A DNA stretch of 64,000 nt, taken from assembly GCA_041649135.1 (NCBI GenBank), contig JBAZNQ010000001.1:445438-509437 (forward strand). The letters run 5' to 3'. Shown here one piece after another: positions 268 through 31,484 of this stretch; position 1 is the first letter of the stretch, and every line of letters starts with the position of its first letter. The translations under genes were made by a program, and so were the position numbers. This DNA comes from Patescibacteria group bacterium (GTDB taxonomy: Bacteria > Patescibacteriota > Kazan-3B-28). The notes below the pieces were generated by a model. The model was not told the DNA's origin. It saw only the letters and a program-made list of their open reading frames with translations, and made no database searches.

Positions 268-621
268 CTAGCCCTTATCCCACTGATCAGCCCAAAAACC
301 CAATGTCGTGACAACTGAAGCATTCGTACTGGGTTCTAAAACCACTTTTTCTCTACCATACTTGGCAATCAGAGGAGTTATCACTTCGTCAGCCCAGGAT
401 GGAGTTAACACAGCGACCCCTGCGAAATCCAGTTCTATTTTTTCACTTTCAGGCAAGTTCTGTAACAATGACTCAACTACCAGAAACGCCTCCCTGCCAG
501 CCGGCCGAGACGAAAGTGTTGTACCAAATTTGTTCAAAATAATTTTCATCTCTCCCTTAATTAAACCATGTATTCTATCAACACATAAAGACCCCTGTAA
601 ATTTTGACACACCTCGGTCAT
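268..621 (-). CDS. STAS-like DUF4325-type small protein
   Basis: 117-aa ORF with a composition typical of the DUF4325/STAS-like family. Its start codon lies inside a Type-1 repeat (ATGACCGAGGTG = MTEV). Confidence 0.45.
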   Translation of the reverse strand: MTEVCQNLQGSLCVDRIHGLIKGEMKIILNKFGTTLSSRPAGREAFLVVESLLQNLPESEKIELDFAGVAVLTPSWADEVITPLIAKYGREKVVLEPSTNASVVTTLGFWADQWDKG

Positions 622-650
622 TTGACTCGTTTTTATTTAGTCATAGACCA
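595..650. repeat. Type-1 intergenic repeat (core ACCTCGGTCATTTGACTCGTTTTTATTT), truncated copy
   Basis: Near-identical to the copies at 2565-2640, 18670-18750 and 25425-25500. Confidence 0.8.
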
Positions 651-671
651 TTCCGTAACCTTGGCGAAGGA

Positions 672-770
672 TGGCTCCCTCTACTGGATAAGTTTAGAAC
701 TTTGGATTGGGTAAAAGTGAGGAAAGAGTTGGATGAGTTCAATATTACATTATCACCTGCTACACTCTGA
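672..770. repeat. Type-3 repeat: ORF-like fragment (…WLPLLDKFRTLDWVKVRKELDEF…*), homologous to 26098-26215
   Basis: About 75% nucleotide identity with the second copy. Several differences are synonymous in one frame. There is no start codon, so it is a gene-fragment relic. Confidence 0.6.
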
Positions 771-772
771 TT

Positions 773-1207
773 ATGGTAAAAATCGCTCTAATCATCGCAA
801 ACAAGCTCCGTGAAATATGGTGGTTTATAGCACGACCAACAACCCAAGGCGTAAAAGCCATTATTATCAATAATGATAAATTTTTGATGGTTAGGCTCAG
901 TTATTTTCCAAACACATGGACATTCCCTGGAGGCGGTATAAATAAAAATGAGTCCCCTAAAGAGGCTATCGTTAGAGAGTGCGAAGAAGAAACAGGAATA
1001 ACATTGAACAGTCCCAAGCTTATAAAAACCTTTCAATTTACTCACGAATACAAAAAAGATACCGTCTATGTCTTTCAAGCTCGCACACAAACAGATACTT
1101 TAGACCCCAATTCAAAAGAAATTATTGAAGCCAAATGGTTTAATAAAAACCAATTACCAAAGATGGGTAAAATTGCTCAGAATATATTCAAAAGCTCGCT
1201 CCTGTAG
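773..1207 (+). CDS. NUDIX hydrolase
   Basis: Nudix box GGGINKNESPKEAIVRECEEETGI (GX5EX7REUXEEXGU). Confidence 0.8.
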   Translation: MVKIALIIANKLREIWWFIARPTTQGVKAIIINNDKFLMVRLSYFPNTWTFPGGGINKNESPKEAIVRECEEETGITLNSPKLIKTFQFTHEYKKDTVYVFQARTQTDTLDPNSKEIIEAKWFNKNQLPKMGKIAQNIFKSSLL

Positions 1208-1390
1208 CGACTAATTTATTCTTGGCTCAGCAACTGGGTTCAGCATCCCCACCAACGCCAGCCCTCCGAAACTCCAAAGGAGTTGGAGCGAAGGATGGGG
1301 GGAGATAATTAAGGGCTTCTGGACAGGTCTGAACGCATCTCGGTCAATTATAGAACCTTAGGAGAAAAAGAGACAAATTAAAAGGGCGGT
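1205..1390. repeat. Composite intergenic repeat: Type-1 3' portion (TTGGCTCAGCAACTGGGTTCAG) plus a degenerate Type-2 (GGAGATAAT…TAGGAGAAAAAGAGACAAAT)
   Basis: Aligns with 4538-4710 and 18820-18930. Confidence 0.6.
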
Positions 1391-1397
1391 CCTATGT

Positions 1398-2477: not shown

Positions 2478-2564
2478 GGTGCACCTCCTTTAGGGTTACT
2501 GGTTTCATTATAGCCACAAAATACCCAGCCGAAGGGTTATCTACAAGAATAGCCCTCAACCGAA

Positions 2565-2640
2565 ATAGGCGCTTTGAGGCACCTCGGTCACTTTACTCGT
2601 TTTTATTTGGCTCAACAGCTCGGTTCGGAATCCACGCTCT
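2565..2640. repeat. Type-1 intergenic repeat (GGCGCTTTGAGGCACCTCGGTCACTTTACTCGTTTTTATTTGGCTCAACAGCTCGGTTCGG)
   Basis: Full-length copy. A TATAAT box and an AGGAGG RBS lie between it and the downstream minus-strand gene start. Confidence 0.8.
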
Positions 2641-2731
2641 GAACATTGATTTAACGTAAGAAGCATGCTAGTGTACTGGTTGTTTCGCGCATTAACAATT
2701 AATCCAAACAAGGAAAAAAGAGGCATCAGAA

Positions 2732-3538
2732 ATGGACTCCCATGATCTTGACGGCCTTATTGACGACTTGGACAGCACCATGAATTCTCTCTTTGCCGAT
2801 TCAAGGAAGAATTGGCGAAGCATCTGGGACAAAATCAGAGAGATTGGTGCTTCGTTCAAGGGAATACGTTATCCCACGCCAGAGGATAGAATTCGCGCGT
2901 GGGATCGATTTCAGTCCCTGGTTGAGCAGATTAAAAACGCTCAAGATGATGACCGGCGACAATGGGAACAAAAATGCCGGACATCTGCTTCCCACAAGGA
3001 CAGGATTCTAGGTTGCATCTACTCGCCCAACGCTCTCAGCGGCGGAATTGCTGATCTCGTCGTCTCCGCCGACAATAACGAGCTGTCAACTGCCTCATCT
3101 GCATTAAAGGGGGGATGGAACTTGCTTAGTTCCTGCAAAGACGAGATGTTAGGACGTGACAAACAGGAGGCCTTCAGGGCCTTGTCCAATGCTCAAGCTC
3201 TACTGAATCAAGCGTGGGACCATTACAGGTCTGCCAAACGATCCGCCCACGAAGCACAGCAACGAGCTTGGGAAGAAAAACAGCGAGCTTGGCAGCAAAG
3301 AGTCCAAGACAACATCGATAAACTCGAAACTCGAATCGACAAGCTAAATGAGATGAAAAACAGAAAAGAATCTCATATTTCACAGCTTCAGAGCGACATC
3401 AGCTGTGGCGGTAGCGACAACTATGTTGAGAGAGTGGAGGGCTGGATTGATGAAGAAGAAGGCCGACTCCAGGATATTAACGAGCAGATCAGCCAAGTCG
3501 AAGGATGGCTCAGCGAAGCACGAGACAAACTTCGATAA
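2732..3538 (+). CDS. Hypothetical coiled-coil protein
   Basis: 268-aa ORF, Q/E/R-rich predicted coiled coil, with a terminator downstream. Confidence 0.5.
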   Translation: MDSHDLDGLIDDLDSTMNSLFADSRKNWRSIWDKIREIGASFKGIRYPTPEDRIRAWDRFQSLVEQIKNAQDDDRRQWEQKCRTSASHKDRILGCIYSPNALSGGIADLVVSADNNELSTASSALKGGWNLLSSCKDEMLGRDKQEAFRALSNAQALLNQAWDHYRSAKRSAHEAQQRAWEEKQRAWQQRVQDNIDKLETRIDKLNEMKNRKESHISQLQSDISCGGSDNYVERVEGWIDEEEGRLQDINEQISQVEGWLSEARDKLR

Positions 3539-3568
3539 TGGTGATGAACCCTTTTTAGATACTAACAG

Positions 3569-3598
3569 CCCCTCGAATCTCGAGGGGCTGCTTTTTAA
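3569..3598 (+). terminator. Intrinsic terminator (AGCCCCTCGA/TCGAGGGGCT stem then GCTTTTT)
   Basis: Perfect 10-bp stem plus T-run, seen directly. Confidence 0.6.
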
Positions 3599-3642
3599 GT
3601 AGAGCTCCCAGGGTCAGGCTTACCCTAATCCAATCCCGCTCC

Positions 3643-4197
3643 TTAGATCTCAACATCTAGTTGACAGGGACACTTGCGTCGAAACATCCAGCGCCTGCCA
3701 CCCTGAAAATGATCACTCGGGAAACCCGGAGTCGCCCATAGTGAATGGCCTTGGTTGCTATGTCCAACACCAAAAATGAATGGAACGAAGCCCAAAATCC
3801 CACGAATCGGCTCCATGGCCACGAAACGCCATACGTTCCTGGATTGATTGTGGCACTGCTTGCACAACTCTGGACCGGCCCAGGCCGGTAGAAGGCCACC
3901 ACCGATATTGCTGATACCGGTAAAAATCTCGGCTAGAGTTGGGGAACGCTTATTCGTCAGTTCCCGGCCGGTAGCTTCCCCTACCTCCACTGTGTTGATT
4001 TCGAAACCCGCCTTGAATGCCGTTTCCGACATGATTTCTTGGGCAAAGGTCTCAACGCAATGACCGTCCCTCTCCAGCATCGCAATGTAGCTCGCTACAT
4101 CGTCGCAGCTCCGAGTCAGCGTCATCCATACTGGACGCTGTAGTAGCCGATAATGTGTTTTTGCAGCCACAGCAATGTGCTGATCTTGATCCATCAA
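3643..4197 (-). CDS. Hypothetical protein
   Basis: 184-aa ORF with no recognisable motif. Confidence 0.4.
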   Translation of the reverse strand: MMDQDQHIAVAAKTHYRLLQRPVWMTLTRSCDDVASYIAMLERDGHCVETFAQEIMSETAFKAGFEINTVEVGEATGRELTNKRSPTLAEIFTGISNIGGGLLPAWAGPELCKQCHNQSRNVWRFVAMEPIRGILGFVPFIFGVGHSNQGHSLWATPGFPSDHFQGGRRWMFRRKCPCQLDVEI

Positions 4198-4351
4198 GTA
4201 TCTCTTATTGGTTCGCCTTATTGTTAAGGCGTTGATGGGTGATTTCCCTGAAGAATTCAGGAGCCATCGACATTTTCAGGGTAGCGCAAAAGCTATCCAT
4301 TGTCAAAAAATTCCCGCTCTGGGGGCTACTTCTTAGTACACCTCAAAAGAG

Positions 4352-4710
4352 ACCCTTCGGACCTCGGTCACTTTACTCGCCTGCCCGCCCGTAGTCCGGC
4401 GGACGAAGGAGAGTTTTTATTTGGCCCCGTTAGCATTCCTTACTGAAAAACGAAGTTCCTTCTGTTATTTCAGTAGCGTCAGCTCCGGGACGCACCTGTC
4501 TGGCTCTTCTGTAATCCAGTAGATGTCGCCAACATGTGGCTCAACAGCTCGGTTCAGATTGCATCCCCAAGGAGATAATTTGGGACTTTTGAAAGGGAGC
4601 TCGGGCAAGTGGGTCAGTTGTAGAACCCATAGGAGAAAATGAGACAAATGAGACAGTGGCAGAGGGGTGTGTTTCACTATAGATTTTAGTTGGATTTTGT
4701 GACGTAATCA
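4352..4710. repeat. Full composite repeat (Type-1 with a 34-bp insertion, a TGGCTCAACAGCTCGGTTCAG block, and Type-2 GGAGATAAT…CCCATAGGAGAAAATGAGACAAATGAGACAGTGGCAGAGGGG…)
   Basis: Best-preserved copy of the family. The overlapping ORF 4465..4677 (MKHTPLPLSHLSHFLL…) is a translation of the repeat. Confidence 0.75.
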
Positions 4711-4726
4711 CCACCGCTTAATAGAG

Positions 4727-5497
4727 CTAATCTAGGGCGCCAATTATTGCCTTGAAATACTTCACCAATACAATCAGACTAATCCCAACCAGAAACAGAA
4801 CAGTTTGGTAAATCGTCATACTCAACGATCTTTCTCTGATAAGGTCTGGCGTCAACTCGGCCAATGCAACGTACAGAAACACGCCGGCGGTAAAAGGTGC
4901 TGCCAACGTCAAAGACACCTTGAATAAAACTGGTAATAACAGTGACACACCCGCTCCAACAAACGACATAAATACCGCGAGTACATTAATCCGATTTGCC
5001 AATAGATTACCAACCCCCGCTCGACGCAAAATGACATAATTCGAAATCTCTTGCGGTATTTGATGGATAACTACTGCAATAGTCGTAGCAATCCCGATTT
5101 GTAAACCAGCCACATAACTACTGGCTATCACCAAACCGTCAACAAAGCTTTGGGTGGAAAAGCCGAACATATTACTAACCGCCGCATGATTACGTCGAGA
5201 CATCCGCACTTTGTACTTCAACTCTCGCCAAGTAATAGTCTGCTCTAGCAAAAACATCAATACGACCCCAGCTACAATGGATACCGTTACAGATGTAGTC
5301 CAGCCATCGTGCACAGCTTTCGGCAATAGATAAATCAGCGCATCTCCAATCAGCGCCCCCGCCGCCAACGCCATAAAACAACCTAAAATTCGATTAAGAT
5401 GCTCCCCCTTCTTTGGAACAACTTTAACAATAAAGTTGGCCAGGATTGCCAACAACCCAGTGCTAACCAGTGCGTAGATATAAACCCAAGAGGCCAT
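4727..5497 (-). CDS. zupT: ZIP-family divalent metal (zinc) transporter
   Basis: Multi-TM protein with an HQIPQEISNYVIL motif, resembling the ZIP signature HNxPEGxA. Confidence 0.7.
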   Translation of the reverse strand: MASWVYIYALVSTGLLAILANFIVKVVPKKGEHLNRILGCFMALAAGALIGDALIYLLPKAVHDGWTTSVTVSIVAGVVLMFLLEQTITWRELKYKVRMSRRNHAAVSNMFGFSTQSFVDGLVIASSYVAGLQIGIATTIAVVIHQIPQEISNYVILRRAGVGNLLANRINVLAVFMSFVGAGVSLLLPVLFKVSLTLAAPFTAGVFLYVALAELTPDLIRERSLSMTIYQTVLFLVGISLIVLVKYFKAIIGALD

Positions 5498-5559
5498 TAC
5501 TTAAAAAGCGTTATACATATTACAACGTTGTCGCTATTAGTATAACCTACTTAAAACCT

Positions 5560-5640
5560 TGGAGACAAATGAGACAGTGGCAGGGCCTACTGTTTTGGGC
5601 TGGATTTTGGAGGAGTTTTGTAGCCTTGTGATGGGATAGG
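5560..5640. repeat. Type-2 repeat copy (GGAGACAAATGAGACAGTGGCAGGG…TTTTGG)
   Basis: Shares the GAGACAAATGAGACAGTGGCAGG core. Confidence 0.7.
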
Positions 5641-5775
5641 TTGGCAAACGGCTTTCATCAAAACGAGTAGTTTTGTAGCCTGTTCCAGGGCATCCTTCTT
5701 ACTGATTTTAACTCCAAACTCCTTCTCGTAGATTCGCTGGAATTCGGATATTTCTTTATCAGTTAATTGCATCAA
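5587..5775 (-). CDS. Small protein (62 aa), paralog of the 29413..29640 product
   Basis: Shared motif EFxRIYxKEFGVKISKKDALEQATKLLVLM versus EFARLYKNAYGIKLTHEQAESKAKALLNLVIAM. Confidence 0.4.
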   Translation of the reverse strand: MMQLTDKEISEFQRIYEKEFGVKISKKDALEQATKLLVLMKAVCQPIPSQGYKTPPKSSPKQ

Positions 5776-6065
5776 AAGAATCCCAAAGTAATACTTTTCT
5801 ATTATACCCCCGCCTCATAGGTGTTGGACTTAGTATACTTTGTGATACTTTATCATACTTTTATATACTTCCAGAGCGACTTTTTTTGACATTTATTATA
5901 TATGTGTTCTAAAATAATAGTAGAAAACCACAATTAGGTAATTAAGGAAACTAACGAGTTTCTTTTGCTGCACGGGAAACCCCGGACAAAAGCAGAAGCC
6001 AGTCAAGGCTGGCCAAAATGCATTGCCGGGTTTTTATACATATTAGTTAATTGAAGGAGGTCAGC

Positions 6066-6605
6066 ATGAAAGTGGTAATCACGTCAGATATAAAAAACGA
6101 AATTAAAATGCTACAAAGAATGGTCCCGTGGCTACAGCGAGGCAATTTAGAAGAAATCAGTCTCAAGCCAAATCATCCAGCCGTTGTTACCCACTTCCCT
6201 CTGAGCGAGGCGGTTAACAGTGAAACCACCGTTGCCAGGTTAGTCAAAAGAGGTCGAAGACTTTTTCTGGTCATTGATAAGTTAGAGATTAATATGGAAC
6301 TGCAGGAGTTCCAGTCCGACTCTCGTGCCAATATTCTAATGAATTACCTGCTTGAGCAGCGACCCGGAGAAATAATCAACATCCTGGAGTTACCCGATTC
6401 AATTCATGAGATTAGCGGACTGAAACTCAGAGACACTTTCCGAAAGATGCACCACTGGAAAGCATTTGAGAAGTACTTCATGCTCAAAAATACCAAACAA
6501 GATTTTGGGATTAGCAATCAGATATTTTTGACTCCACTAGAGACCAACCAGCTCCTCAAAGCATTTAATATCAAATGGCAAGAACCGGAACAAACAAGTA
6601 AATAA
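6066..6605 (+). CDS. Hypothetical protein
   Basis: ATG with a GGAGG RBS 6 nt upstream. It is the first gene of a plus-strand phage-like block. Confidence 0.5.
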   Translation: MKVVITSDIKNEIKMLQRMVPWLQRGNLEEISLKPNHPAVVTHFPLSEAVNSETTVARLVKRGRRLFLVIDKLEINMELQEFQSDSRANILMNYLLEQRPGEIINILELPDSIHEISGLKLRDTFRKMHHWKAFEKYFMLKNTKQDFGISNQIFLTPLETNQLLKAFNIKWQEPEQTSK

Positions 6606-6696
6606 CAGATGAGCGACAACGGAACATTAAAGAACTCCCGCTTGGGAGTTCTTTTTGATTCTACGATTGGGTCAGTTATATTTTTAAAAAGATCTT

Positions 6697-8022
6697 ATGA
6701 AAAAAGATACTTTGGCCGTTTGCTACCTGCCGGTCTCCGAGCTCAAACCGAGCACATATAATCCCCGTCGTTGGAATGAGTCAGCGATTCAACAGCTGAC
6801 CGACAGCGTCCGTAAGTTTGGGATGGTCGATCCCATTCTCGCAAATTCTGCCCCCGGCAGAGAAAACATTATTATAGGGGGTCATTTCCGCTTGAAGGTG
6901 GCCAAAGACCTCGGCATTAAAGAAGTGCCAGTTGTTTTCGTTAATATCCCCGAGATTGAGCGTGAAAAGGAATTAAACCTTCGCCTCAACCACAACCTTG
7001 GCGCTTGGGACTTAGACCTGTTAGCTGAGTTTGATCCCGCCCTCCTACAAGATGTAGGTTTTTCCAGCGAGGAAATGGACGAGATTACTGGTATCGATGA
7101 AAATCCCGAAACCTTTGACCTCCAAAAAGAGTTAGACAAACTGGGCATCACAGACATCGACATCCAGAAAGGTGACCTATGGAAATTAGGTGACCACTAC
7201 CTTGCTTGTGGCGATTCTACAGATGAAGCACATATCACTGGGCTGGTATGTGAAACCGCTCCATCATTCTGTTTGACCGACCCCCCGTACCTGTTGGACT
7301 ATCTCAAAGGCAAGAAAAAACATGGCAAACCAACTGAAGGGTTTGGCTTTAAACGAGATCGTAAATATCTCGAAACTGACAAACTGGACGACGACTTCAC
7401 CGAGAAATGGATGGCAAATATCGCTAAGGTCGCATCACCTAACTTCTCAATTCTCTGTTATGAAAATTGGAAGAACATTCCGATTATTTGGGGTGAGATG
7501 GCAAAGTACTGGAAGATCAAGAACATGATTGTCTGGCACACCCCCAACCGCAATCAAGGGTTCGCCGCGAAGTATAAGTTTTTCAGCAAGCACGATATCG
7601 CCATGGTCGGGCAAAGCGGTGAACCGACTATGAACTTAGAGCCGGAAGATGAGCTGTTGCAAAACGAATACGAAACGGCGTTGTTTGCCATTCAAGGTAA
7701 ACCCCAATGGGAGGGCTACGAGAAAGGTAAGAAGTACCAACCGACTGACTTCATCGAGTTTAATGTGGCCGACGAGAAAAGTTCTGGCCAAGGGATTATC
7801 TTTGGGGTTAAGCCAATCGAAATCTTAATCCCCTACATCAAGGTGCTGACTAAACGTGGAGATTGGGTAATTGAGCCATTCGGCGGTTCGGGCTCAACTT
7901 TGATCGCTTGTGAAAAACTCGGAAGAAAATGCTACATTTCCGAAAAATCTCCTACATACGCTTGTGTGATTCGGAACAGATGGGAAAAGCTGACCGGGCA
8001 GAAGGGAGTGAAAGTACGATGA
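6697..8022 (+). CDS. ParB-like nuclease N-domain fused to a DNA N6-adenine/N4-cytosine methyltransferase
   Basis: ParB-N motifs in the N-terminal half (GGHFRLKVAKDLG). A DPPY motif (LTDPPYL) and FGGSGST in the C-terminal half. Confidence 0.8.
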   Translation: MKKDTLAVCYLPVSELKPSTYNPRRWNESAIQQLTDSVRKFGMVDPILANSAPGRENIIIGGHFRLKVAKDLGIKEVPVVFVNIPEIEREKELNLRLNHNLGAWDLDLLAEFDPALLQDVGFSSEEMDEITGIDENPETFDLQKELDKLGITDIDIQKGDLWKLGDHYLACGDSTDEAHITGLVCETAPSFCLTDPPYLLDYLKGKKKHGKPTEGFGFKRDRKYLETDKLDDDFTEKWMANIAKVASPNFSILCYENWKNIPIIWGEMAKYWKIKNMIVWHTPNRNQGFAAKYKFFSKHDIAMVGQSGEPTMNLEPEDELLQNEYETALFAIQGKPQWEGYEKGKKYQPTDFIEFNVADEKSSGQGIIFGVKPIEILIPYIKVLTKRGDWVIEPFGGSGSTLIACEKLGRKCYISEKSPTYACVIRNRWEKLTGQKGVKVR

Positions 8023-24060: not shown

Positions 24061-24109
24061 CGTAATGATTCTCCAACCTTACCGTACCCAATGAGCAGAC
24101 CCGAAGAAC

Positions 24110-24616
24110 TTAATATAGCCAACTGCGATATTTGGGCGTAGCATCTTTCATATCTTCATACAGCCACACCATCCGATCAGCAAACCATAATTTACTGATA
24201 ATAATCATAGCCCCACCAAATATGACTGACCATACCTGAAACATCGCTAGTCCCCAGATAAAGAAGAGCCCGCCGATTCCACCCACGGCGGATAAAATAT
24301 TGGGTAAAGTTTGATGATGTTGGGGTACTGGTATATTTTTACGATTCATCCAAACCCACTCGCCCAGCACTACTTTGGATGCCCAGTTGTTGGTACTTTG
24401 GGGCGCAGTAAAAACCCGTGGATTAAACCAGACCCACAACAGCACTATGACAATTGGAACAAGTGACCACCATCCGAGCCAAATTCTACTCCAAAAGGCC
24501 AGACCTATTAACGGCACCATAGAGAAACGAGAATAAACACTCCAGGGGCTAGAATGGCGTCGACGAGTCGGCTCGTCCATCCTAAAGGCTTTGGCAATAT
24601 TTTGTTCTAAAGTCAT
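24110..24616 (-). CDS. Hypothetical Trp-rich membrane protein
   Basis: 168 aa with multiple TM segments. Confidence 0.45.
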   Translation of the reverse strand: MTLEQNIAKAFRMDEPTRRRHSSPWSVYSRFSMVPLIGLAFWSRIWLGWWSLVPIVIVLLWVWFNPRVFTAPQSTNNWASKVVLGEWVWMNRKNIPVPQHHQTLPNILSAVGGIGGLFFIWGLAMFQVWSVIFGGAMIIISKLWFADRMVWLYEDMKDATPKYRSWLY

Positions 24617-24633
24617 AGCACGAACGAATCAAT

Positions 24634-25404
24634 CTACTCAACTGCAAATAACCCAACGCTATTGAAGTAGTGGATGAGCTTTCCCCCACTAGTAAGGATG
24701 ACTCGAATAGTCGGATAGTTATAGACATCACCAGTTAGACCTTTGGGAAGCTTGTAGCTGGTATCCTGCCAGATCCATTCATGAGCGGCGGCTACATTGA
24801 CCGGGTTCTCTTTGCTCGGCTGGTAGGTGAAGTCGTCCTGGAGCTGAGTGAAATTAGAGACATTTTGAGAGAGGAAGTCCATGGCGATGGTCTCGATTTG
24901 AGATTGGGTTTTGGTAGGAATATACAGAGAACCATAGCTGGCGCATTGGGAGGCATTGAGTCCCACACCTCCCAGTAGGTTCTGGATCTCTTCCGGATAG
25001 CGAACATGGATATCTACTATCTGATTATTACGAGCATCTATCTCGTACTCATAGACCTCGCACTGTTCATTGATGTATTGGGTTTGTTGAAAGACATAGA
25101 CTGGACGTTGCCACTCTGCCGGGGTATCAGTTCGCCATGCTCCATCACCCAGCTGGGTAGCTGTTCCAATAGTGAAGTTAGAGGGATTCTTTTGGGTGGT
25201 GATATATCTGACAGTCGGGTTGGAATCAGCCATGAGATGCATGAAGCGTTGGATGACAAGCTGGATTTGGGCGGTTACCGCAGTAGTCGGCTCTGGCAGT
25301 ACGCTAACATCCCGGGTTGATGACTTCGGACTCTGCCATGCCCAGATACCGATGGCTACAACAAAAACGACGGCTAAGATAGGAATTAGTTCGAGCTTCT
25401 TCAT
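24634..25404 (-). CDS. Hypothetical secreted protein
   Basis: N-terminal signal/anchor MKKLELIPILAVVFVVAIGIWA. Confidence 0.45.
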   Translation of the reverse strand: MKKLELIPILAVVFVVAIGIWAWQSPKSSTRDVSVLPEPTTAVTAQIQLVIQRFMHLMADSNPTVRYITTQKNPSNFTIGTATQLGDGAWRTDTPAEWQRPVYVFQQTQYINEQCEVYEYEIDARNNQIVDIHVRYPEEIQNLLGGVGLNASQCASYGSLYIPTKTQSQIETIAMDFLSQNVSNFTQLQDDFTYQPSKENPVNVAAAHEWIWQDTSYKLPKGLTGDVYNYPTIRVILTSGGKLIHYFNSVGLFAVE

Positions 25405-25424
25405 GGTTCTATTGTATACCTCCT

Positions 25425-25500
25425 AAAGGACGCTTTGAGGCACCTCAGTCATTTGACTCGTTTTTATTTGGCTCCGTTGGCTAGAAGAAGTCAGGACTTG
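25425..25500. repeat. Type-1 repeat, variant tail (…TTTGGCTCCGTTGGCTAGAAGAAGTCAGGACT)
   Basis: Same head as other Type-1 copies. Shares its tail with 26640-26700. Confidence 0.8.
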
Positions 25501-25515
25501 TAACAGTGTTCCATA

Positions 25516-26031
25516 CTAGACAACTAGCTCCCGCGCCCTTTTCAAGAGAGTAGCATCTCTTAATCGGATAAATTTGCCGACATACACATCTGGCTCACTC
25601 TCTTCAACCAATTTGATAGCCTCGTCCAAATCTACCCATATCGGCTTCATCCCCTCGTCTATCTCCTCAGCCTCGTAAGCCGTTTCACCATCACCCTCAG
25701 CAACCTGAGCGAGATAGCAGTAAGATATCTGCAGTTCATCTCGTTCATTTCGATATTCAATAATAATTCCCACTTCACCAGTCACCCGTATTGCATACCC
25801 AATCTCCTCTTTTGCCTCTCTCTGTAAAGCATCAGCTATTTGCTCACCTGCCTCAATCCCGCCACCAGGCAATTTGTAATATCCAGCATTACTAACATGA
25901 AGCAGGGCAATTTGATTTTTATCATTAAAAATCACTGCCCTCGCCGCCCTACGCAACTGATACGGCTTATCAGTTCTCGCTGGCAATCCAGTGCCGACTT
26001 CAGCATCAGATATTTCTAATAGTAATTCCAT
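25516..26031 (-). CDS. NUDIX hydrolase
   Basis: LPGGGIEAGEQIADALQREAKEEIGY Nudix box. Confidence 0.75.
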   Translation of the reverse strand: MELLLEISDAEVGTGLPARTDKPYQLRRAARAVIFNDKNQIALLHVSNAGYYKLPGGGIEAGEQIADALQREAKEEIGYAIRVTGEVGIIIEYRNERDELQISYCYLAQVAEGDGETAYEAEEIDEGMKPIWVDLDEAIKLVEESEPDVYVGKFIRLRDATLLKRARELVV

Positions 26032-26097
26032 GTCTATATCTTATCAGGTTCTAACTCCTATTCGGGGTACAAAAATAACCAGCTCCTATGGCTGGTT

Positions 26098-26215
26098 ATT
26101 CTCTGGCTCCCCCTGCTGGATAAGTTTAGAAAAGTTGACTGGATAAAAGTCAGAAGAGAGTTAGATGATTTTGTATTAAAAAATGTCGGGGTTTCACCGA
26201 CTTCTATCGCCTGAG
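26098..26215. repeat. Type-3 repeat/gene-fragment (…LWLPLLDKFRKVDWIKVRRELDDF…*), homologous to 672-770. Begins with TGGCTCCCCCTGCTGGAT, which resembles the tRNA-Asn 3' end TGGCTCCCGCGGCTGGAT.
   Basis: Direct comparison: 15/18 identity with the tRNA-Asn 3' end at 31410-31427. Confidence 0.5.
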
Positions 26216-26229
26216 CGATAGCCGTTACG

Positions 26230-26586
26230 TCAATTGAATTGCGGTGGGTAGGTCAACTGTCCCAGAAACCGAAATGATTCCCTGTCCAAGCGTTTGTGAA
26301 GACGCTTGAGCTTCTCCTGCTCTTCGCGGATAGTATTATCATACTTCCACTTAGGCGGGGGTTCGGGATACGTGGTCTTCATATAATCCCACTCATAATC
26401 ATCTGGGGCTGTCTGTCTGCGAACACGTAATTCCCCGATGAAAGCTTCCGTGGCAAGAATCTGTTTGTCAATTTCTTCCACAGAGGGCTGGTTGAAGACC
26501 CAATCAACTGCATCGTCAAATTGACGCAGAATCACCTTGGCTTTTAGCCACCGCAATAATTTCAAGTTGAGTATCAAGCTCAACAT
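26230..26586 (-). CDS. Hypothetical protein
   Basis: 118-aa ORF. Confidence 0.4.
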   Translation of the reverse strand: MLSLILNLKLLRWLKAKVILRQFDDAVDWVFNQPSVEEIDKQILATEAFIGELRVRRQTAPDDYEWDYMKTTYPEPPPKWKYDNTIREEQEKLKRLHKRLDRESFRFLGQLTYPPQFN

Positions 26587-26639
26587 AGGTTCATCACCTC
26601 CACTGATGATGATTTATATATATCAAAAAACTCGCTTTC

Positions 26640-26700
26640 AGTCAAGCTTTTCTTGGTTTGGCTCCGTTGGCTAGAAGAAGTCAGGACTATGCCTGCCTAG
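26640..26700. repeat. Type-1 repeat tail fragment (TTTGGCTCCGTTGGCTAGAAGAAGTCAGGACT)
   Basis: Identical tail to 25470-25500. Confidence 0.7.
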
Positions 26701-27217
26701 AAATAAACACGAGTTTCTGAGTTTCCCGATCATAGGTTATATAGACCTTGCCACTATAGCGCCCCTCGCTAGTAAGGTCGTTCAACAAAATTGCCAAAGT
26801 ATCAGCATCAGTGTCTGTTAGACCAGCAGGCATCAGCACATACAACTCCAACCCGCCTTTCGTAAGCGTTAAATCTACCACCTCTTTGGACCTTTTAATC
26901 TTTCGGAGCAGATCCTGTGCTAACTCTTTCCCAAATTCCTGAAAAAATCCTTGAGCCACAAGACCTATTGTTGTAGCCACCGACGTCCATATCCAAAAGC
27001 CTAAGGTCAGCCCACCATCGCCACCCCCCCGCTCTGGCAAAACCTCATAAATAGCCACCCTGTCATCTTCCGCCCCAGCCAACTCTCGTAATGGCGTCGG
27101 GTCCACTTCCCAGCCATTAAACACCACATCGATCCATGCAGTCCCCTCTAGATGGCTGAGCTGCGAACTATCAAATGGCTCATAATGCTCTCTATCCGCT
27201 TCTACAAATTTAGCCAT
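26687..27217 (-). CDS. Hypothetical protein
   Basis: 176-aa ORF. Confidence 0.4.
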   Translation of the reverse strand: MAKFVEADREHYEPFDSSQLSHLEGTAWIDVVFNGWEVDPTPLRELAGAEDDRVAIYEVLPERGGGDGGLTLGFWIWTSVATTIGLVAQGFFQEFGKELAQDLLRKIKRSKEVVDLTLTKGGLELYVLMPAGLTDTDADTLAILLNDLTSEGRYSGKVYITYDRETQKLVFISRQA

Positions 27218-27389
27218 AAAAATTCATTTTTATCCATTATTATAGCTTCCCAAACGAAGGTTTTCCAGATAATACGCCTCCTGCTAGCTATTACTCACAC
27301 TAGCCAAAGTTCTTGACCGAGTATCACATCCACTACATACTGTAAATAGCTCATCTACCATGCGTGGAAAGAGTACTAGACGCCGCCCT

Positions 27390-27893
27390 TTACTGGGCGG
27401 TGTTGGTTTTGCACCACTCTTCACATTCAGCTTCCAGTCTACGCTTGCGGTGGTCATACTCTACGGTATAGGCAGTCAACAATACAAAATACCCCTTATT
27501 TCTAGGTGCCAAAACAACCACATAGCTCCAATCTGAAAGTGCAATGCAAACATGAAGCTTATCCTTACGTTTTACTTCCCAAACCTTCAGACTAGCCGAA
27601 TTTTCAATCATCGGCCTGACCCAACACACTCTCTCGCAACGTCGTAAATCTGGGATCCTTGTTGCCTCCGTCTTGCCTTCTGAAACTAAGTGCCAGAACG
27701 TAATACCCTTTCCATTAAGGGGTGGAGCAAAACGACTAACGACTGGCAGACCCCTAAAAAGAGGCTTACTTGCAACAAAATCCTTGCAGTAATGAGCGTA
27801 AATAGCATCAATGTATTTATCCCAATTACCGCTATGTTCTCCGAGCTCAACAATCGCAGGCAACCAATCAATTGTCGCAACACCATCAGCCAT
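27390..27893 (-). CDS. Hypothetical protein with a possible PD-(D/E)xK nuclease motif
   Basis: IPDLRR…(21 aa)…WEVKRK fits PD…(D/E)xK. The call is weak. Confidence 0.35.
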   Translation of the reverse strand: MADGVATIDWLPAIVELGEHSGNWDKYIDAIYAHYCKDFVASKPLFRGLPVVSRFAPPLNGKGITFWHLVSEGKTEATRIPDLRRCERVCWVRPMIENSASLKVWEVKRKDKLHVCIALSDWSYVVVLAPRNKGYFVLLTAYTVEYDHRKRRLEAECEEWCKTNTAQ

Positions 27894-28584
27894 TTCGTGC
27901 CTCCCACCGCAACAAATTCAGCTTGTCTTCTCGAACCAGAGTGGTGGCCTTCAGACTATAACCAGAACGTTGTTTTATTTTAGCTATGATATCAAGTTTT
28001 GCCTGACTCGCCTGCAAACCACGTGCTGTGTATGATACTGCGCCCAATAAAAAGTCAGCCAATTGAAGAATCTCACTTTCGTGAGAGCGCATATTTTGAA
28101 TCTTTGCTACCACTTTCCTAGAGATATCCCCCAAGCTAGTGGCAAGCACATCATGCAGCTTCTTCACCTTATCCGCACTACGACTATCTTTGATGTCTAA
28201 GTATATGTCGTATTTATTTTCAGGATGCAAAATGACCCATAGCATCTCGTAGTACATTTTGTAATACCAATCGTCATGGGTCTGATTGTGCGCCTCATGA
28301 TTCAACACTCCCTTATCAGGTATCACCAGCGCCCTAAAGTGAAGATCGGAATTGTCGAAAAAATAATTCACCAAATCAAGATAAAAGGCTTCTTTGGCTG
28401 GGGAAACCTTTGACCACTTGATTTCAAAGCTACCACTAAGGCCATGCTCTTTTTTAATTTCCCGAATTCTTTGCGAAATCGGACGAACTTTTTCTATGGG
28501 GCACCATATGGCGCCCAGCGACATAGCCAGTTGTTTGTCATTTTCCAAGTGACAACTTTCGTCACAGTAAACATTAAAATCCAT
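27886..28584 (-). CDS. DUF3800-family protein
   Basis: N-terminal FNVYCDESCH motif typical of DUF3800. Confidence 0.55.
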   Translation of the reverse strand: MDFNVYCDESCHLENDKQLAMSLGAIWCPIEKVRPISQRIREIKKEHGLSGSFEIKWSKVSPAKEAFYLDLVNYFFDNSDLHFRALVIPDKGVLNHEAHNQTHDDWYYKMYYEMLWVILHPENKYDIYLDIKDSRSADKVKKLHDVLATSLGDISRKVVAKIQNMRSHESEILQLADFLLGAVSYTARGLQASQAKLDIIAKIKQRSGYSLKATTLVREDKLNLLRWEARNG

Positions 28585-28680
28585 ACTTCCTCCTGATAGC
28601 TAAAAGTGGGTGAAAACAACACCCTACATCATTTTACACCCAAATTAGGTTGCAAATAGACCATCCCATCTATCTTCTCT

Positions 28681-28860
28681 ATCGTGTCGGAAAACTCTTG
28701 ATTTTCCGACTGCTTCGTGGCGCAGTATAAAAAATCAGCTATCTGCTCGTTCCAAAAAACTCTTTTTTATCGTGTCAGGAAACTCCTTTTGCCGTGTCGG
28801 AAAATTACCCAACATGCCCTCGTTCAGGCAAAAGCGACCTTTTACCGTGTCAATAAATCA
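28681..28860. promoter_or_regulatory. Iteron/operator cluster: four direct repeats of (A/G)(T/C)CGTGTC(G/A)GAAAA. The first is a perfect palindrome, GTCGGAAAA-n7-TTTTCCGAC.
   Basis: Copies at 28681, 28769, 28791 and 28844. Confidence 0.6.
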
Positions 28861-28872
28861 TCGTTTTCTACC

Positions 28873-29043
28873 GCCCACCGTACATATCAACCCAAAAGAC
28901 ATACCCAGCCACAATCACAAAAATCACTAACGTAAAAATTCCAGAGGCCACTTCCCCAGCATACAAATACAGCAACACACCACTAAACAAGAATAGGGCA
29001 ATGGACATAATGAGACACAGAGGATAAATCTTTGGATCCATGT
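28873..29043 (-). CDS. Possible small hydrophobic protein (57 aa), below the ORF-track cutoff
   Basis: Manual translation: MDPKIYPLCLIMSIALFLFSGVLLYLYAGEVASGIFTLVIFVIVAGYVFWVDMYGGR. Confidence 0.25.
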
Positions 29044-29068
29044 TGATTAGGAGATAACTTATATCACA

Positions 29069-29230
29069 AAAGGGCAGACCTCACGCTTGGTCTACCCGAA
29101 ACCTCTTGCCCTGTTAGGAGCTGAGCGTCGCGGACAAGCAGAGCATCTGCCCGTCTCTGCCCACGACACCTCTCTCAATAGAGGCCTAACAGGAATTGTA
29201 GATATACAAATTTTGGTTTCAGGTAGACGC
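29069..29230. other. Second copy of the structured inverted-repeat element (GGGCAGACCTCAC…GCAGAGCATCTGCCC; CTGTTAGG…CCTAACAG)
   Basis: Homologous to 18435-18590. Lies about 600 bp upstream of serine recombinase B. Confidence 0.6.
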
Positions 29231-29412
29231 CCACATTTTACCTTGTGCGGACTTTTTTATCCACATTTTTATTTTCGCCCCATAAGATAAAGATATATTC
29301 CAATCGTTGCTCTGGAAGCTGATTTCGCACTAGACAGCCTGTTGCGAATCGATACAATGAAACTAGTTTCGACAGTTCACTTGTTCATTTAGCAATACAA
29401 CCAGTTCGCGGC

Positions 29413-29640
29413 ATGGTTAGCTGTGTTTTCAAATACATGGTTACTTCAATATCCAGCAAACGAGTCGCGGAGTTCGCACGTCTGTACAAGAACGCTTACG
29501 GCATCAAACTGACGCACGAACAAGCAGAGAGCAAAGCAAAAGCATTGCTCAATCTTGTAATTGCCATGTCCCCCTCCCAACCCAACGGTATATTAGTTAA
29601 CCAAAATCATCGAAATGAAAGACAAGTTAGTCCGTGTTAG
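29413..29640 (+). CDS. Small protein, paralog of the 5587..5775 product
   Basis: Shared EFxRxYxxxxGxKxxxxxAxxxAxxLLxLxxAM motif. Confidence 0.4.
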   Translation: MVSCVFKYMVTSISSKRVAEFARLYKNAYGIKLTHEQAESKAKALLNLVIAMSPSQPNGILVNQNHRNERQVSPC

Positions 29641-29818
29641 TAGTGAGTCCCATAAGCTCCTCAACCTATACGCTGTAGCCCAAGGTGAAAGCCTGAAAAG
29701 CGCCATAGAGCATCTCATCAACTCTGCAATTGAAGCCGACTCAGAGCTTCAGCCACTTTTCATTCAGCTTGCCAACCACTCTGCAACAAAACCAGCAGAA
29801 CCTGCTGGACTTAAATAA
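29615..29818 (+). CDS. Small ribbon-helix-helix-like DNA-binding protein
   Basis: KLVRVSSESHKLLNLYAVAQGESLKSAIEHLI is RHH/Arc-like. Sits immediately upstream of the recombinase. Confidence 0.35.
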   Translation: MKDKLVRVSSESHKLLNLYAVAQGESLKSAIEHLINSAIEADSELQPLFIQLANHSATKPAEPAGLK

Positions 29819-29846
29819 AAACTTCGAGTATTGGTTTGTGTTGACT

Positions 29847-31451
29847 ATGAAATATATTCTCTACGCTAGAAAGTCCTCAGAAAGTGAAGACCGACAAGTA
29901 CTGTCGGTGGATTCGCAAATTCAAGAATTAAAGGCATTAGCCAAACGCAATGGTCAGCAAATAGTAGCTGTCCTTCAGGAATCGATGTCAGCCAAAGACC
30001 CAGAAAAGAGGCCAGTATTTGAAGAAATGGTAGATAGGATCAAGGGCGGAGAAGCTCAAGGTATTATCTGCTGGAAACTCGACCGATTAGCCCGCAATCC
30101 CGTTGATGGTGGAACAATCCAATGGATGCTCCAAAGAGGCGATGTCACGCACATTCAGACAGCTGATAGAAGTTATTACCCCAGCGACAATGTACTTCTG
30201 ATGAGTGTGGAGCTTGGTATGGCAAATCAGTTTATTCGAGACTTAAGTCAAAACACCAAAAGAGGTCTACGCGCAAAGGCAGCTCAAGGACACTATCCTG
30301 GCTATTCAACTATTGGATATATGCACGACCCTCTAGTCCCTAAGGGGAAAAAATATATCATCCCCGACCCAGAACGATTCTCGATTGTCCAACGAATGTT
30401 GCGACTAATAATTGATGGGGAAGCTAACCCACCTCAGGCACTAAAGGTCGCCACAGAAGAATGGGGTCTTAGAAGTAGGCTCGGCAACAAGTTGCCACAA
30501 AGTACTATCTATCGAATCATCAAAGATCCTTTTTACGCAGGATACTATGAATACCCTAAAGCCAGTGGTAATTGGTTTGATGGACTACATGAGGCAATGA
30601 TTACCAGAAGCGAGTACGACACACTCCAAGCAATTATGAAACGACCAAGTAGAACCCGTCCCAAAACCCTAATCTTTGCCTATACTGGCCTAATCTACTG
30701 TGGAGAATGTGGTGGTATGGTCACTGCCGAAATAAAAAGAAAGGTCTTAAAGAATGGGGAAATCAGAATCTACATCTACTATCACTGCACCAAGCGGAAA
30801 AATCCTAACTGCACTCAAAAGTGCATTACCGAAGAGGAGCTAGAATCTCAACTCGTAGCCATTCTTAAGCGAGTAGAACTCCCAGAGGATTTCAGCGAGT
30901 GGGTCATCAAGCAACTAGAGCTCATGAACCGCCAATCTGCCGAAAACCGCCAAGCCATATTGCGCGACCTGCAAGCTAACTACCAAAATTGCACCAAGCG
31001 TATCGACACCCTTATAGACATGCGTACTTCCGAAGCTATAACTTCAGAAGAGTTTGATACCAAGAAAGTTCAGCTACTAGCCGAAAAGGAACGAATCCAC
31101 GAGCTCCTGAATGACAAGGATCGCGATGTTAACCAGACCGTGGTTAGAACCGAGACAATCATAAGATTAGCCGAGCAAGCCACCCTTAAGCTCAAAACTG
31201 GTAGCATTCTCGAGAAGAAGCGTCTAGTATCCCAATTATGTTCGAACCTGACACTGCTAGACAATAAGCTCACCCTAGAAGTAGAAAAACCATTTTCTAT
31301 CGCAGAACGGCTGGCCACAGAAGTGCATGCCATTGCTGAAGGGTTAGAACCGCAAAAAGACCGCTCACAGAGCGACCTTATTGCCGAAAAACTAGTTGAT
31401 TCTGATAACTGGCTCCCGCGGCTGGATTCGAACCAGCGACCCATCGCTTAA
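29847..31451 (+). CDS. Large serine recombinase; the 3' end overlaps tRNA-Asn on the opposite strand
   Basis: YARKSS, DRLARN and a C-x2-C…YYHC zinc ribbon. Start taken at MKYILYARK. Confidence 0.85.
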   Translation: MKYILYARKSSESEDRQVLSVDSQIQELKALAKRNGQQIVAVLQESMSAKDPEKRPVFEEMVDRIKGGEAQGIICWKLDRLARNPVDGGTIQWMLQRGDVTHIQTADRSYYPSDNVLLMSVELGMANQFIRDLSQNTKRGLRAKAAQGHYPGYSTIGYMHDPLVPKGKKYIIPDPERFSIVQRMLRLIIDGEANPPQALKVATEEWGLRSRLGNKLPQSTIYRIIKDPFYAGYYEYPKASGNWFDGLHEAMITRSEYDTLQAIMKRPSRTRPKTLIFAYTGLIYCGECGGMVTAEIKRKVLKNGEIRIYIYYHCTKRKNPNCTQKCITEEELESQLVAILKRVELPEDFSEWVIKQLELMNRQSAENRQAILRDLQANYQNCTKRIDTLIDMRTSEAITSEEFDTKKVQLLAEKERIHELLNDKDRDVNQTVVRTETIIRLAEQATLKLKTGSILEKKRLVSQLCSNLTLLDNKLTLEVEKPFSIAERLATEVHAIAEGLEPQKDRSQSDLIAEKLVDSDNWLPRLDSNQRPIA

Positions 31452-31484
31452 CAGGCGATTGCTCTACCGCTGAGCTACACGGGA
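31410..31484 (-). tRNA. tRNA-Asn (GTT)
   Basis: Manual fold: acceptor UCCCGUG/CGCGGGA, anticodon loop CTGTTAA, T-loop TTCGAAT, encoded CCA. Confidence 0.75.

Follow-up and report, generated by a model that had tools for sequence, protein, structure and literature searches.

The tRNA-Asn locus and its gene content

We analysed a 64,000-nt stretch of contig JBAZNQ010000001.1 (GCA_041649135.1, positions 445,438 to 509,437, forward strand; referred to here as the window) from a Patescibacteria group bacterium of the Candidate Phyla Radiation (CPR; GTDB Patescibacteriota; Kazan-3B-28). To the right of a tRNA-Asn gene lie rpoD (31975-33744), dnaG (33876-35606) and, further right, ribosomal and other core genes; GC content is uniform there and GC skew strongly negative. 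To the left of tRNA-Asn, composition is patchy (GC 0.39-0.51) and the skew flips sign. Our data indicate that the left-hand region, 600-31484, probably consists of integrative elements, some of them reduced to remnants, that were stacked in tandem by repeated site-specific integration into the 3' end of tRNA-Asn. Three features are central to this interpretation:

31410-31484, minus strand: tRNA-Asn (GTT), the proposed integration target (ARAGORN; Rfam 70.9 bits)
29847-31451 (alternative start 29730), plus strand: LSR2, an intact large serine recombinase (LSR) of class I (Pfam Resolvase, Recombinase and Zn_ribbon_recom)
16189-17556, plus strand: LSR1, an intact LSR of class II (Pfam; conserved upstream block at 16086-16215)

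Pfam scans of the 36 open reading frames (ORFs) in 1-35.6 kb identified these two LSRs, each matching PF00239, PF07508 and PF13408 above the curated cut-offs. The scans also identified a Type III restriction-modification (R-M) pair with a DUF2779 nuclease (10507-16121), a phage ParB-methylase with small and large terminases (6697-9960), two NUDIX genes, and ZIP transporter, YibE/F, DsbD/CcdA-like and DUF3800 genes, besides many small hypotheticals. Three additional tRNA genes lie within the array at 9997-10237. A first-pass annotation of this DNA had described the array as unidirectional, which does not strictly hold, as 8 of its approximately 32 ORFs are on the plus strand. The same annotation counted two LSRs, one of them at tRNA-Asn, and this is correct: the genes lie at 16189-17556 and 29730/29847-31451, the latter overlapping the tRNA gene by 42 nt.

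Repeats are built from halves that meet at the last six bases of tRNA-Asn

The first-pass annotation had also reported intergenic repeats of three types. These are real, since their counts far exceed chance. In comparison with 100 shuffles, the motif AAAAACGAGTMAARTGACYGAGGT, which belongs to a half-repeat termed F here, occurs in four exact copies (0.00 expected), TGGCTCAACAGCTCGGT with up to three mismatches in four copies (0.10 expected), and the Type-2 motif GAGACAAATGMGACRGTG with up to three mismatches in six copies within 4.6-24 kb plus two weak ones elsewhere (0.14 expected). A fifth F copy, at 4360-4421, is broken by a 34-nt insertion. Self-BLAST and a repeat search placed every copy within 600-26700 as a direct, intergenic repeat in the orientation of tRNA-Asn, and neither self-BLAST nor motif counts returned a copy among the core genes at 32-64 kb; within the window, the repeats are confined to this locus. 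The Type-3 pair (672-739 and 26104-26171) is 81% identical, and its reported 15/18 match to the tRNA-Asn 3' end is accurate.

When copies were aligned in the tRNA orientation on ...GAGCCA, we found that Type-1, although it does recur as first described, is not a single family. It is made up of an upstream and a downstream half, unrelated to each other, which join at G(A/G)GCCA (TGGCTC on the opposite strand). The downstream half is F, approximately 31 nt long (A-A/C-N-AAAAACGAGTmAArTGACyGAGGTG). The upstream half is one of three kinds: arm a (...ATCTGAACCGAGCTGTTGAGCCA, preceded by a Type-2 block), arm b (...TCCTGACTTCTTCTAGCCAACGGAGCCA) or arm c, which is Type-3. Our junction table holds 11 junctions that end in G(A/G)GCCA, all oriented as the tRNA, and the final six bases of tRNA-Asn, GAGCCA (TGGCTC on the plus strand, 31410-31415), are the same shared crossover hexamer. 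Across loci, all left arms end in G(A/G)GCCA with the exception of a GAGTCA variant in one relative (L089). Four junction types are present: a/F, b/F, a joined to an LSR remnant, and c joined to other sequence. A different set of genes follows each of the five F copies of the window. When all loci are considered, at least six different sequences adjoin arm a on its right and at least eight adjoin F on its left; thus, both behave as termini of mobile units. The two arm b copies are 100% identical over 32 nt (the copy at 26659 against 25467-25498), and arm a is 85-95% conserved across the window and four comparison loci (L004, L086, L087, L088).

An E-value scan of 1-36 kb against Rfam returned tRNAs only, so the repeats are not a known RNA family. 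The composite repeats fold no better than shuffled sequences (z -1.5 to +1.1), and the repeat search found no inverted repeats inside them. We considered whether the arms are pseudo-tRNA genes and rejected this, as they have only an A72-G73-CCA-like end and a weak T-arm resemblance with no pairing T stem. What the scars of the array have in common with the tRNA is 6 bp of identity and weak similarity beyond it; they are not partial tRNA copies.

The Type-2 core is a tandem 9-mer (ATGmGACAr, twice) with AGGAG before it on the plus strand (4641-4658, 5562-5579, 18896-18913 and 19837-19854; 12881-12960 in L004). Some Type-2 copies switch A to C in both 9-mers together. The core may be bound by a protein, or it may be a very short ORF (MRQMRQW...). 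Separately, a palindromic insertion of 34-45 nt (CCTTCGTCCG...CGGACTACGGAGG) is present in one F copy (4380-4413) and in several a arms, including one at approximately 1255-1300 and those at 3350-3395 and 4790-4835 of L086; it behaves like a miniature mobile hairpin.

Class I recombinase genes end inside the tRNA gene

The C-terminus of LSR2 reads ...DSDNWLPRLDSNQRPIA-stop, and the final 42 nt of its gene are the antisense of the tRNA-Asn 3' end, which supplies the last 13 codons (WLPRLDSNQRPIA-stop). Translation of arm b on the plus strand gives WLRWLEEVRTCNSVPY-stop (from 25469) and WLRWLEEVRTMPA-stop (from 26659), while arm c gives WLPLLDKFRTLDWVKVRKELDEF... (672) and WLPLLDKFRKVDWIKVRRELDDF... 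(26104). These tails match the C-termini of intact homologues of LSR2 and of a second class I recombinase, LSR-B (e.g., ILRWLDQVRT, LRWVEDVRT and WLPLLVVFRTLNW). Furthermore, when arm b is placed behind the LSR2 body, an ORF colinear with intact homologues is restored. We therefore read b/LSR2 as the attachment site attP, tRNA/LSR2 as attL and b/F as an attR. The corresponding junctions were found as tRNA/F in two relatives (L004, L089), tRNA/LSR2 in the window and b/F in the window (25469).

We asked whether the overlap extends beyond the window, using comparison loci (L-numbers) from genome, metagenome and IMG/VR collections. Tails of the tRNA-antisense type (...DSNxRP..., the antisense translation of a tRNA T-loop) occur in 49 of 119 LSR2-family and 44 of 119 LSR-B-family proteins among the matches listed. 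All six LSR2-family members that were checked in their contigs overlap tRNA-Asn by approximately 40 nt; they are those of the window, L144, L145, L147, L148 and L001, where we infer the overlap, its contig being near-identical to the window. The targets by family are:

LSR2 family, window and L001: tRNA-Asn, approximately 40 nt
LSR2 family, L144, L145 and L147: tRNA-Asn, approximately 40 nt
LSR2 family, L148: tRNA-Asn split by a group I-like intron
LSR-B family, L143 and L146: tRNA-Asn
LSR-B family, L149: tRNA-His

Most of the checked LSR2 and LSR-B loci adjoin rpoD. In L143, a 7.3-kb island behind the LSR ends with arm c joined to GAAAATAATCAGCC, and this c/GARAATAAYCAGCC junction matches the one at 26104 in the window. 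A search of viral contigs with LSR2 gave one weak match only.

In two loci, tRNA-Asn is split in its anticodon loop by a group I intron of approximately 235 nt (L085, 875-1184; L148, approximately 3540-3800, reverse). The L085 intron scores 54 bits against Rfam RF00028 (cut-off 50), and ARAGORN misses both split genes. In L148, the LSR2-family gene still overlaps the 3' exon.

Downstream content differs between relatives

Among species-representative genomes, that of candidate division Kazan GW2011_GWA1_50_15 (L004; CP011216.1; approximately 0.6 Mb, complete) is the closest. Its rpoD protein is 68% identical to that of the window, and the order tRNA-Ser...dnaG-rpoD...tRNA-Asn is kept. Its tRNA-Asn is intact, 100% identical to that of the window, and followed directly by CATAAAAACGAGTCAAATGACCGAGGTG, which is F. 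A Type-2 block with arm a lies approximately 5.5 kb beyond F, abutting the 3' end of another LSR gene, LSR-B.

Scanned for the F motif, the metagenome collection yielded eight loci only, and in each F stands right after ...G(A/G)GCCA. There, F follows either intact tRNA-Asn genes of differing sequence (L084/L090, L085, L089) or pseudo-ends (L086/L088, L087, L091). Seven of these loci either contain tRNA-Asn or match a contig containing it; the remaining one, L087, begins at GAGCCA/F. Between genomes, F is approximately 90-100% conserved even though their rpoD sequences are only about 70% identical at the DNA level.

The tRNA-Asn locus is present in seven related genomes, and downstream content is different in each. 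It differs from that of the window in L004, L088, L089, L091, L143 and L144. The gene beside tRNA-Asn is rpoD in L004, L088, L091, L143, L144 and L085, with dnaG in L004, L088, L143 and L144; the L089 sequence has no upstream flank of tRNA-Asn. A gene for a 184-amino-acid (aa) protein adjoins tRNA-Asn in L088 and lies 27 kb from it in the window. L001, the sole other sample of the window's species that was found, is 99.94% identical over 14.4 kb and has the same order.

A different R-M system is present in each of three tRNA-Asn arrays: a BsaWI-like system with HNH in L087 (2882-6198), ThaI with a C5 methylase in L143 (3872-5483) and the Type III system of the window (12086-16121). The tRNA-Asn locus behaves as a defence island. 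In addition, L088 (5065-5281, tRNA orientation) and L091 (1775-1993) carry a homologous insert of approximately 200 nt directly after tRNA-Asn. Each insert ends in an exact 20-nt copy of its own genome's tRNA 3' end and includes a tRNA-like T-arm/acceptor segment on the opposite strand; the inserts gave no Rfam match.

The class II recombinase and the F terminus

LSR1 is 81% identical to an LSR of L004 that lies between F and arm a. Both the window (from 18715 to 4537) and L004 (7569-13050) show the layout F...LSR1-type gene...Type-2/a, and F lies 0.5-1.7 kb from an LSR1-type gene in the window, L004 and L089. A unit of L087 has the same ends and carries a BsaWI-like R-M system, an ABC-F gene and a radical-SAM gene. 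We rejected the possibility that L087 has an LSR1-type gene: of the LSR1 region, only the conserved upstream block is left, and the ABC-F gene replaces the LSR.

LSR1 relatives occur in 50 IMG/VR loci. Among the first 29 of these (L092-L120), 10 have a minus-strand tRNA 0.1-4.7 kb downstream of the LSR. In LSR1-family IMG/VR loci an F-like motif follows other tRNA genes: tRNA-Trp is followed by ACGAGTGCGCGAGTCAAGCGACCCG and tRNA-Gln by GCAAGGGCACGAGTCAAGCGACCCG, compared to AATAAAAACGAGTCAAATGACCGAG in F (the motif compared is ...CGAGTCAAGCGACCCG after both tRNA genes and CGAGTCAAATGACCGAG in F). Two loci, L094 and L095, share terL, tRNAs, DUF2779 and the LSR with 7687-17511 of the window and carry different cargo at the position of its Type III R-M system; the LSR1 unit is therefore read as a prophage-like remnant. 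From these arrangements, the best reading is that LSR1-family elements have F as their tRNA-proximal arm (P') and Type-2 with arm a as their distal arm. The tail encoded by arm a (WLNSSVQIASPRR-stop) has no counterpart among 240 homologue tails, and so the a/LSR-B junctions (L004; window 4500-4575) are read as a class II element beside an older class I element.

Units of the array

From tRNA-Asn outward, the array appears to consist of approximately 10 units of 0.1-14 kb stacked head to tail, with one intact LSR2 element and one LSR1 prophage remnant; the remaining units appear to be recombinase-less or decayed. The units (E1-E10) and their predicted boundaries are:

26659-31409, minus strand: unit E1, the LSR2 element (LSR2, small RHH-like ORFs, DUF3800, 167-aa and 176-aa ORFs), ending in arm b
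26659-26700, plus strand: arm b, putative displaced native LSR2-type tail (WLRWLEEVRTMPA-stop), distal end of E1 (identity to the second copy; homologue tails)
26104-26658: unit E2, one 118-aa ORF, ending in arm c
26104-26214, plus strand: Type-3/arm c, putative displaced native LSR tail (WLPLLDKFRKVDWIKVRRELDDF...), ending E2 (aligns with homologue tails WLPLLVVFRTLNW...)
25469-26103: unit E3, a NUDIX gene, ending in arm b
25469-25519, plus strand: second copy of arm b (WLRWLEEVRTCNSVPY-stop), joined to F, ending E3 (self-BLAST, junction table)
23987-25468: unit E4, F, a 256-aa ORF and DUF6653, ending in an internally deleted Type-2/a
25420-25468, minus strand: F copy, starting E4 (self-BLAST, exact motif)
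23987-24069, minus strand: arm a with Type-2, internally deleted, ending E4
18716-23986: unit E5, ten genes, ending in Type-2/a
18716-18912, minus strand: arm a (TGGCTCAACAGCTCGG) with Type-2, ending E5
4537-18715, minus strand: unit E6, the prophage-like LSR1 element, from F to Type-2 with arm a (4537-4708)
18667-18715, minus strand: F copy, starting E6 (self-BLAST, exact motif)
4422-4536, plus strand: unit E7, what is left of a collapsed class I element (tblastn, LSR-B tail of L004 as query)
2608-4421: unit E8, F, 184-aa and 268-aa ORFs, ending in arm a
4360-4421, minus strand: F copy split by a 34-nt palindromic insertion (4380-4413), starting E8 (uninterrupted counterpart in L086/L088)
2559-2634, minus strand: composite a/F, in which arm a (2608-2634, without Type-2) ends E8 and F (2559-2607) starts E9
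1223-2607: unit E9, F, a 359-aa NAD-binding protein and Type-2, ending in an a-like arm
1223-1386, minus strand: a-like core (1223-1249) with Type-2 (1280-1386) and a palindromic insertion between them, ending E9
672-1222: unit E10, a plus-strand NUDIX gene, ending in arm c
672-770, plus strand: Type-3/arm c, tail WLPLLDKFRTLDWVKVRKELDEFNITLSPATL-stop, ending E10 (homologue-tail alignment)
603-638, minus strand: leftmost F copy, 33 nt from arm c (exact motif)

E5 holds DUF2178, HTH, HEAT, DUF7670, YibE/F, DUF134, DsbD/CcdA-like and 285-aa ORFs, together with a solo Type-2 fragment (19815-19864). E6 runs from F through 198-aa and 74-aa ORFs, LSR1, the Type III R-M system (12086-16121), DUF2779 and the tRNA-Phe/Arg/Arg cluster (9997-10237), then through the terL/terS/ParB-methylase genes (6697-9960), a solo Type-2 fragment (5562-5632) and the ZIP transporter to Type-2 with arm a. 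E7 retains the final LSR codons ...NPVDVANM (4500-4536) and a degenerate b-like arm (TGGCCCCGTTAG, WPR-stop). The leftmost F contains the start codon of a DUF4325 gene (268-621), and the array may extend beyond the left edge of the window.

Several sequence features lie within or beside these units. Four YCGTGTCrrwAA copies (approximately 28678-28860), in a 1.1-kb non-coding stretch upstream of LSR2, are iteron-like and may mark an origin or operator of the LSR2 element. A non-coding block of approximately 130 nt (AAAGGGCAGACCTCAC...GAGCATCTGCCC...TTGTAraTATAC) is common to the LSR1 unit (18432-18560) and the LSR2 element (29063-29200). Its initial 44 nt are 77% identical, it gave no Rfam match, and it may represent either a structured RNA or a regulatory sequence.

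On the other side of tRNA-Asn, a 23S-rRNA-IVP-family gene (31563-31940) sits between rpoD and tRNA-Asn. It is flanked by a 26-nt inverted repeat (31506-31531 and 31939-31964; 92% complementary, ATATCCAAT-rich), and similar CCAAT-rich motifs recur at 37595-37614 and 42053-42076. The gene is at the same spot in L145 and absent in L143 and L144; L004 has other ORFs there and gave no DNA or translated match to it. Just downstream of dnaG, a perfect (CTCTACT) microsatellite of approximately 19 units (35805-35935) differs from L001 by exactly 7 nt over the aligned stretch, which fits a one-unit length change.

A model of serial integration and its alternatives

We propose the following model for the growth of the array. 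Crossover by an LSR is expected at a central dinucleotide in sites of 40-50 bp; here, since the junctions share only G(A/G)GCCA, strand exchange would have to occur within those six bases. Given that the crossover would fall within the final tRNA bases, the tRNA, acceptor stem included, would be left intact. Class I elements (LSR2, LSR-B) would carry attP in the last codons of the recombinase gene. Their integration, presumably catalysed by LSR2 in the case of E1, would fuse the gene body to the tRNA, giving the tRNA-antisense tail (WLPRLDSNQRPIA-stop), and would leave the native tail-coding segment at the far junction; repeats b and Type-3/c would be such segments. An insertion of this class would thus convert tRNA/F into tRNA/LSR and b/F (or c/F). 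Class II elements (prophage-like, with LSR1 as the likely catalyst) would place F next to the tRNA and Type-2 with the tRNA-mimicking arm a at the distal end, and the fresh F beside the tRNA may recreate the class I target site. Each newcomer would land at the tRNA and shift older units outward. The older units would lose their recombinases and decay, while their cargo (R-M, NUDIX, transporters) would stay between hybrid att sites, i.e., the a/F, b/F, a/LSR-remnant and c/other junctions of the window.

It had been suggested at first pass that serine recombinases carried out serial site-specific integration at the tRNA-Asn 3' end and that the repeats are junctions derived from att sites. The present data support this: content in relatives differs at repeat boundaries, repeats within the window occur at this locus only, and the link to the tRNA end is stronger, not weaker, in alignments. 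The idea that the repeats are decaying tRNA scars is mostly not supported, as F acts as an element terminus and Type-3 and b appear to be displaced 3' ends of recombinase genes. Their likeness to the tRNA end would reflect the resemblance of attP to attB.

Several points weigh against serial integration. To our knowledge, canonical LSRs recombine only attP with attB and not hybrid sites. Re-use of an occupied site is therefore the weakest link, as it needs either a tRNA/F junction rebuilt by class II insertion or relaxed specificity. Arm a shares a reading frame with the intact LSR-B gene of L004 and may itself be a native LSR tail, the third of its kind, and the Type-2 block of approximately 100 nt has no assigned function. 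The left end of the array falls outside the window, and the junction partners at 26658, 26103 and 1222 have no assigned identity. No circular or excised form and no same-species empty site were seen, L001 being the only other sample; as L001 also has the same order, current mobility is unproven. Lastly, F is followed by an RNase Y-like ORF in L085 and L091, and so may be native flank there; this ORF is absent from the window and L004.

One alternative is that F is the native flank of tRNA-Asn (B'), that only class I elements integrated and that segmental duplication or unequal recombination produced the additional F copies, which would then not be class II termini. F does follow an intact tRNA-Asn in three other genomes, an RNase Y-like ORF stands behind F in L085 and L091, and b/F and a/F resemble classical attR sites. 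We nevertheless regard this as improbable: the five F copies of the window each have different genes after them, F is approximately 90-100% conserved where rpoD DNA is about 70% identical, it lies 0.5-1.7 kb from an LSR1-type gene in the window, L004 and L089, and F-like motifs follow other tRNAs beside LSR1-family genes in IMG/VR. Our first model, in which F was the native flank and a/LSR-B was attP, cannot yield five F copies, and it was dropped because of these IMG/VR loci and because the arm a tail is unmatched in 240. Far less plausible, and largely refuted, is the view that the repeats are generic repetitive extragenic palindromic (REP) elements, miniature inverted-repeat transposable elements (MITEs) or promoter/operator modules unrelated to recombination. 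A co-directional gene does start within 0-280 nt after every F copy, and the palindromic insertion at 4380-4413, with relatives in some a arms, is MITE-like. However, all copies have a single orientation, 32.5 kb of core sequence holds none, seven of the eight F loci in the metagenome collection are tied to tRNA-Asn (with L087 at GAGCCA/F), the arms encode recombinase tails, and there is neither a fold signal nor an Rfam family.

Another alternative is a true cassette system, integron-like in what it does, in which a/F junctions are recombination sites where a trans-acting LSR excises and re-inserts recombinase-less units, shuffling cargo within and between arrays; the array would then be more than a graveyard of whole elements. 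Such a system would account for the lack of a recombinase in most units despite well conserved termini (85-95% in arm a), for the different distance of the 184-aa gene from tRNA-Asn in L088 and the window (27 kb), and for the complete identity of the two b arms over 32 nt. Yet circular cassettes were not seen, the order in L001 is identical, unit sizes range over 0.1-14 kb with genes on both strands, and canonical LSRs are inactive on hybrid sites. Decay of recombinases in stacked elements accounts for the same data, and we consider a cassette system unlikely. Serial integration at the tRNA 3' end remains our preferred explanation.

Comparison with known systems

Staphylococcal cassette chromosome (SCC) composite islands are formed by Ccr LSRs that insert at the 3' end of rlmH/orfX in staphylococci, and include tandem, recombinase-less pseudo-elements and short direct repeats. 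The array described here shares with them probable LSR-driven insertion at the 3' end of a conserved gene and tandem stacking with recombinase-less units, whereas its target is tRNA-Asn, no rlmH lies at the junction and the link to Ccr is limited to the common LSR domain set. In streptococci, accretion of integrative and conjugative elements (ICEs) and cis-mobilizable elements (CIMEs) relies on tyrosine integrases and places non-autonomous att-flanked elements in tandem with autonomous, conjugative ones. Recombinase-less att-flanked units beside autonomous ones, with scope for cis-mobilisation, are found here as well, but the array has no conjugation genes. The intP gene of myxophage Mx8 carries attP within its 3' end, and integration alters the C-terminus of this tyrosine recombinase, which targets tRNA-Asp. 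Class I elements similarly appear to hold attP in the last codons of the recombinase and to swap the native tail; in contrast to Mx8, they use LSRs and tRNA-Asn, and the new tail is encoded by the tRNA antisense strand.

The first-pass annotation had called the locus integron-like. Like an integron, it grows on one side from a fixed site, its cargo is varied, and a site that recurs separates the units. We rejected the integron reading, as none of the 36 ORFs in 1-35.6 kb is an IntI-type tyrosine recombinase (PF00589), attC-type hairpins are lacking (z -1.5 to +1.1) and the units (0.1-14 kb, 0-14 genes, both strands) are not single-ORF promoterless cassettes but whole or decayed mobile elements. 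A REP/MITE class was likewise rejected, since copies in the window occur only at 600-26700, in one orientation, with none in 32-64 kb.

Nor had the first-pass annotation recognised the architecture as one already described. In fact, integrative elements are known to form tandem arrays at tRNA genes, with the att core restored at both ends so that further insertions are permitted (PMC7192596), and pile-ups with remnants at tRNA genes, termed tycheposons, occur in streamlined Prochlorococcus genomes (bioRxiv 10.1101/2020.12.28.424599). Similar to the Islander/TIGER tRNA arrays (PMC7192596), an intact tRNA and integrase are at one end here, co-oriented att cores lie between units, newer units appear to be proximal and older, decayed ones distal, and content varies between relatives. 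In contrast to those arrays, LSRs take the place of tyrosine integrases, the host belongs to the CPR (closest complete relative 0.6 Mb) and, instead of a long tRNA-derived direct repeat, there are approximately 6 bp of tRNA identity and non-identical arms. Tycheposons likewise involve a streamlined genome, successive integrations at one tRNA that push older elements inward, and adaptive or defence cargo. Their remnants are fragmented integrases and partial-tRNA scars, tyrosine recombinases are present in 910 of 937 and many have replication modules (bioRxiv 10.1101/2020.12.28.424599). Here, three LSR families are involved, the scars appear to be recombinase-tail segments and element termini rather than partial tRNAs, and Pfam scans of the 36 ORFs in 1-35.6 kb gave no match to a primase/helicase module. 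The array is thus an instance of tandem integrative elements at a tRNA gene, a phenomenon already described, and neither an integron nor a new architecture.

Implications

Insertion at tRNA genes is usually the work of tyrosine integrases, and serine integrases usually target protein-coding genes. The three LSR families described here use tRNA 3' ends, contrary to this rule. What is unusual about the locus is the use of serine rather than tyrosine recombinases at a tRNA, the position of attP inside the recombinase's own 3' end, the apparently strict specificity of one LSR family for tRNA-Asn across CPR contigs and the size of the array for a lineage with a closest complete relative of 0.6 Mb. 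A limited literature search turned up no account of serine recombinases acting at tRNA genes in the CPR, which is weak evidence of novelty. It is conceivable, though we hold this tentatively, that the CPR harbour very large undescribed LSR clades dedicated to tRNA 3' ends, chiefly that of tRNA-Asn, with attP in their own last codons and the antisense tail as a marker or switch of the integrated state, and that these, together with rebuilding of tRNA/F by LSR1-type elements, provide tiny genomes with an open-ended, integron-like capture locus that needs no integron integrase.

The stacked foreign DNA amounts to at least 31 kb, which would be approximately 5% of the chromosome on the 0.6-Mb scale of the closest complete relative. 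Given that this DNA includes R-M systems, transporters and NUDIX hydrolases, accessory genes probably enter this lineage mainly through the tRNA-Asn locus. If these observations prove generally true, the overlap of an LSR gene with tRNA-Asn would be a cheap marker for CPR prophages and islands, and the LSRs themselves would be integration tools with a near-universal attB.

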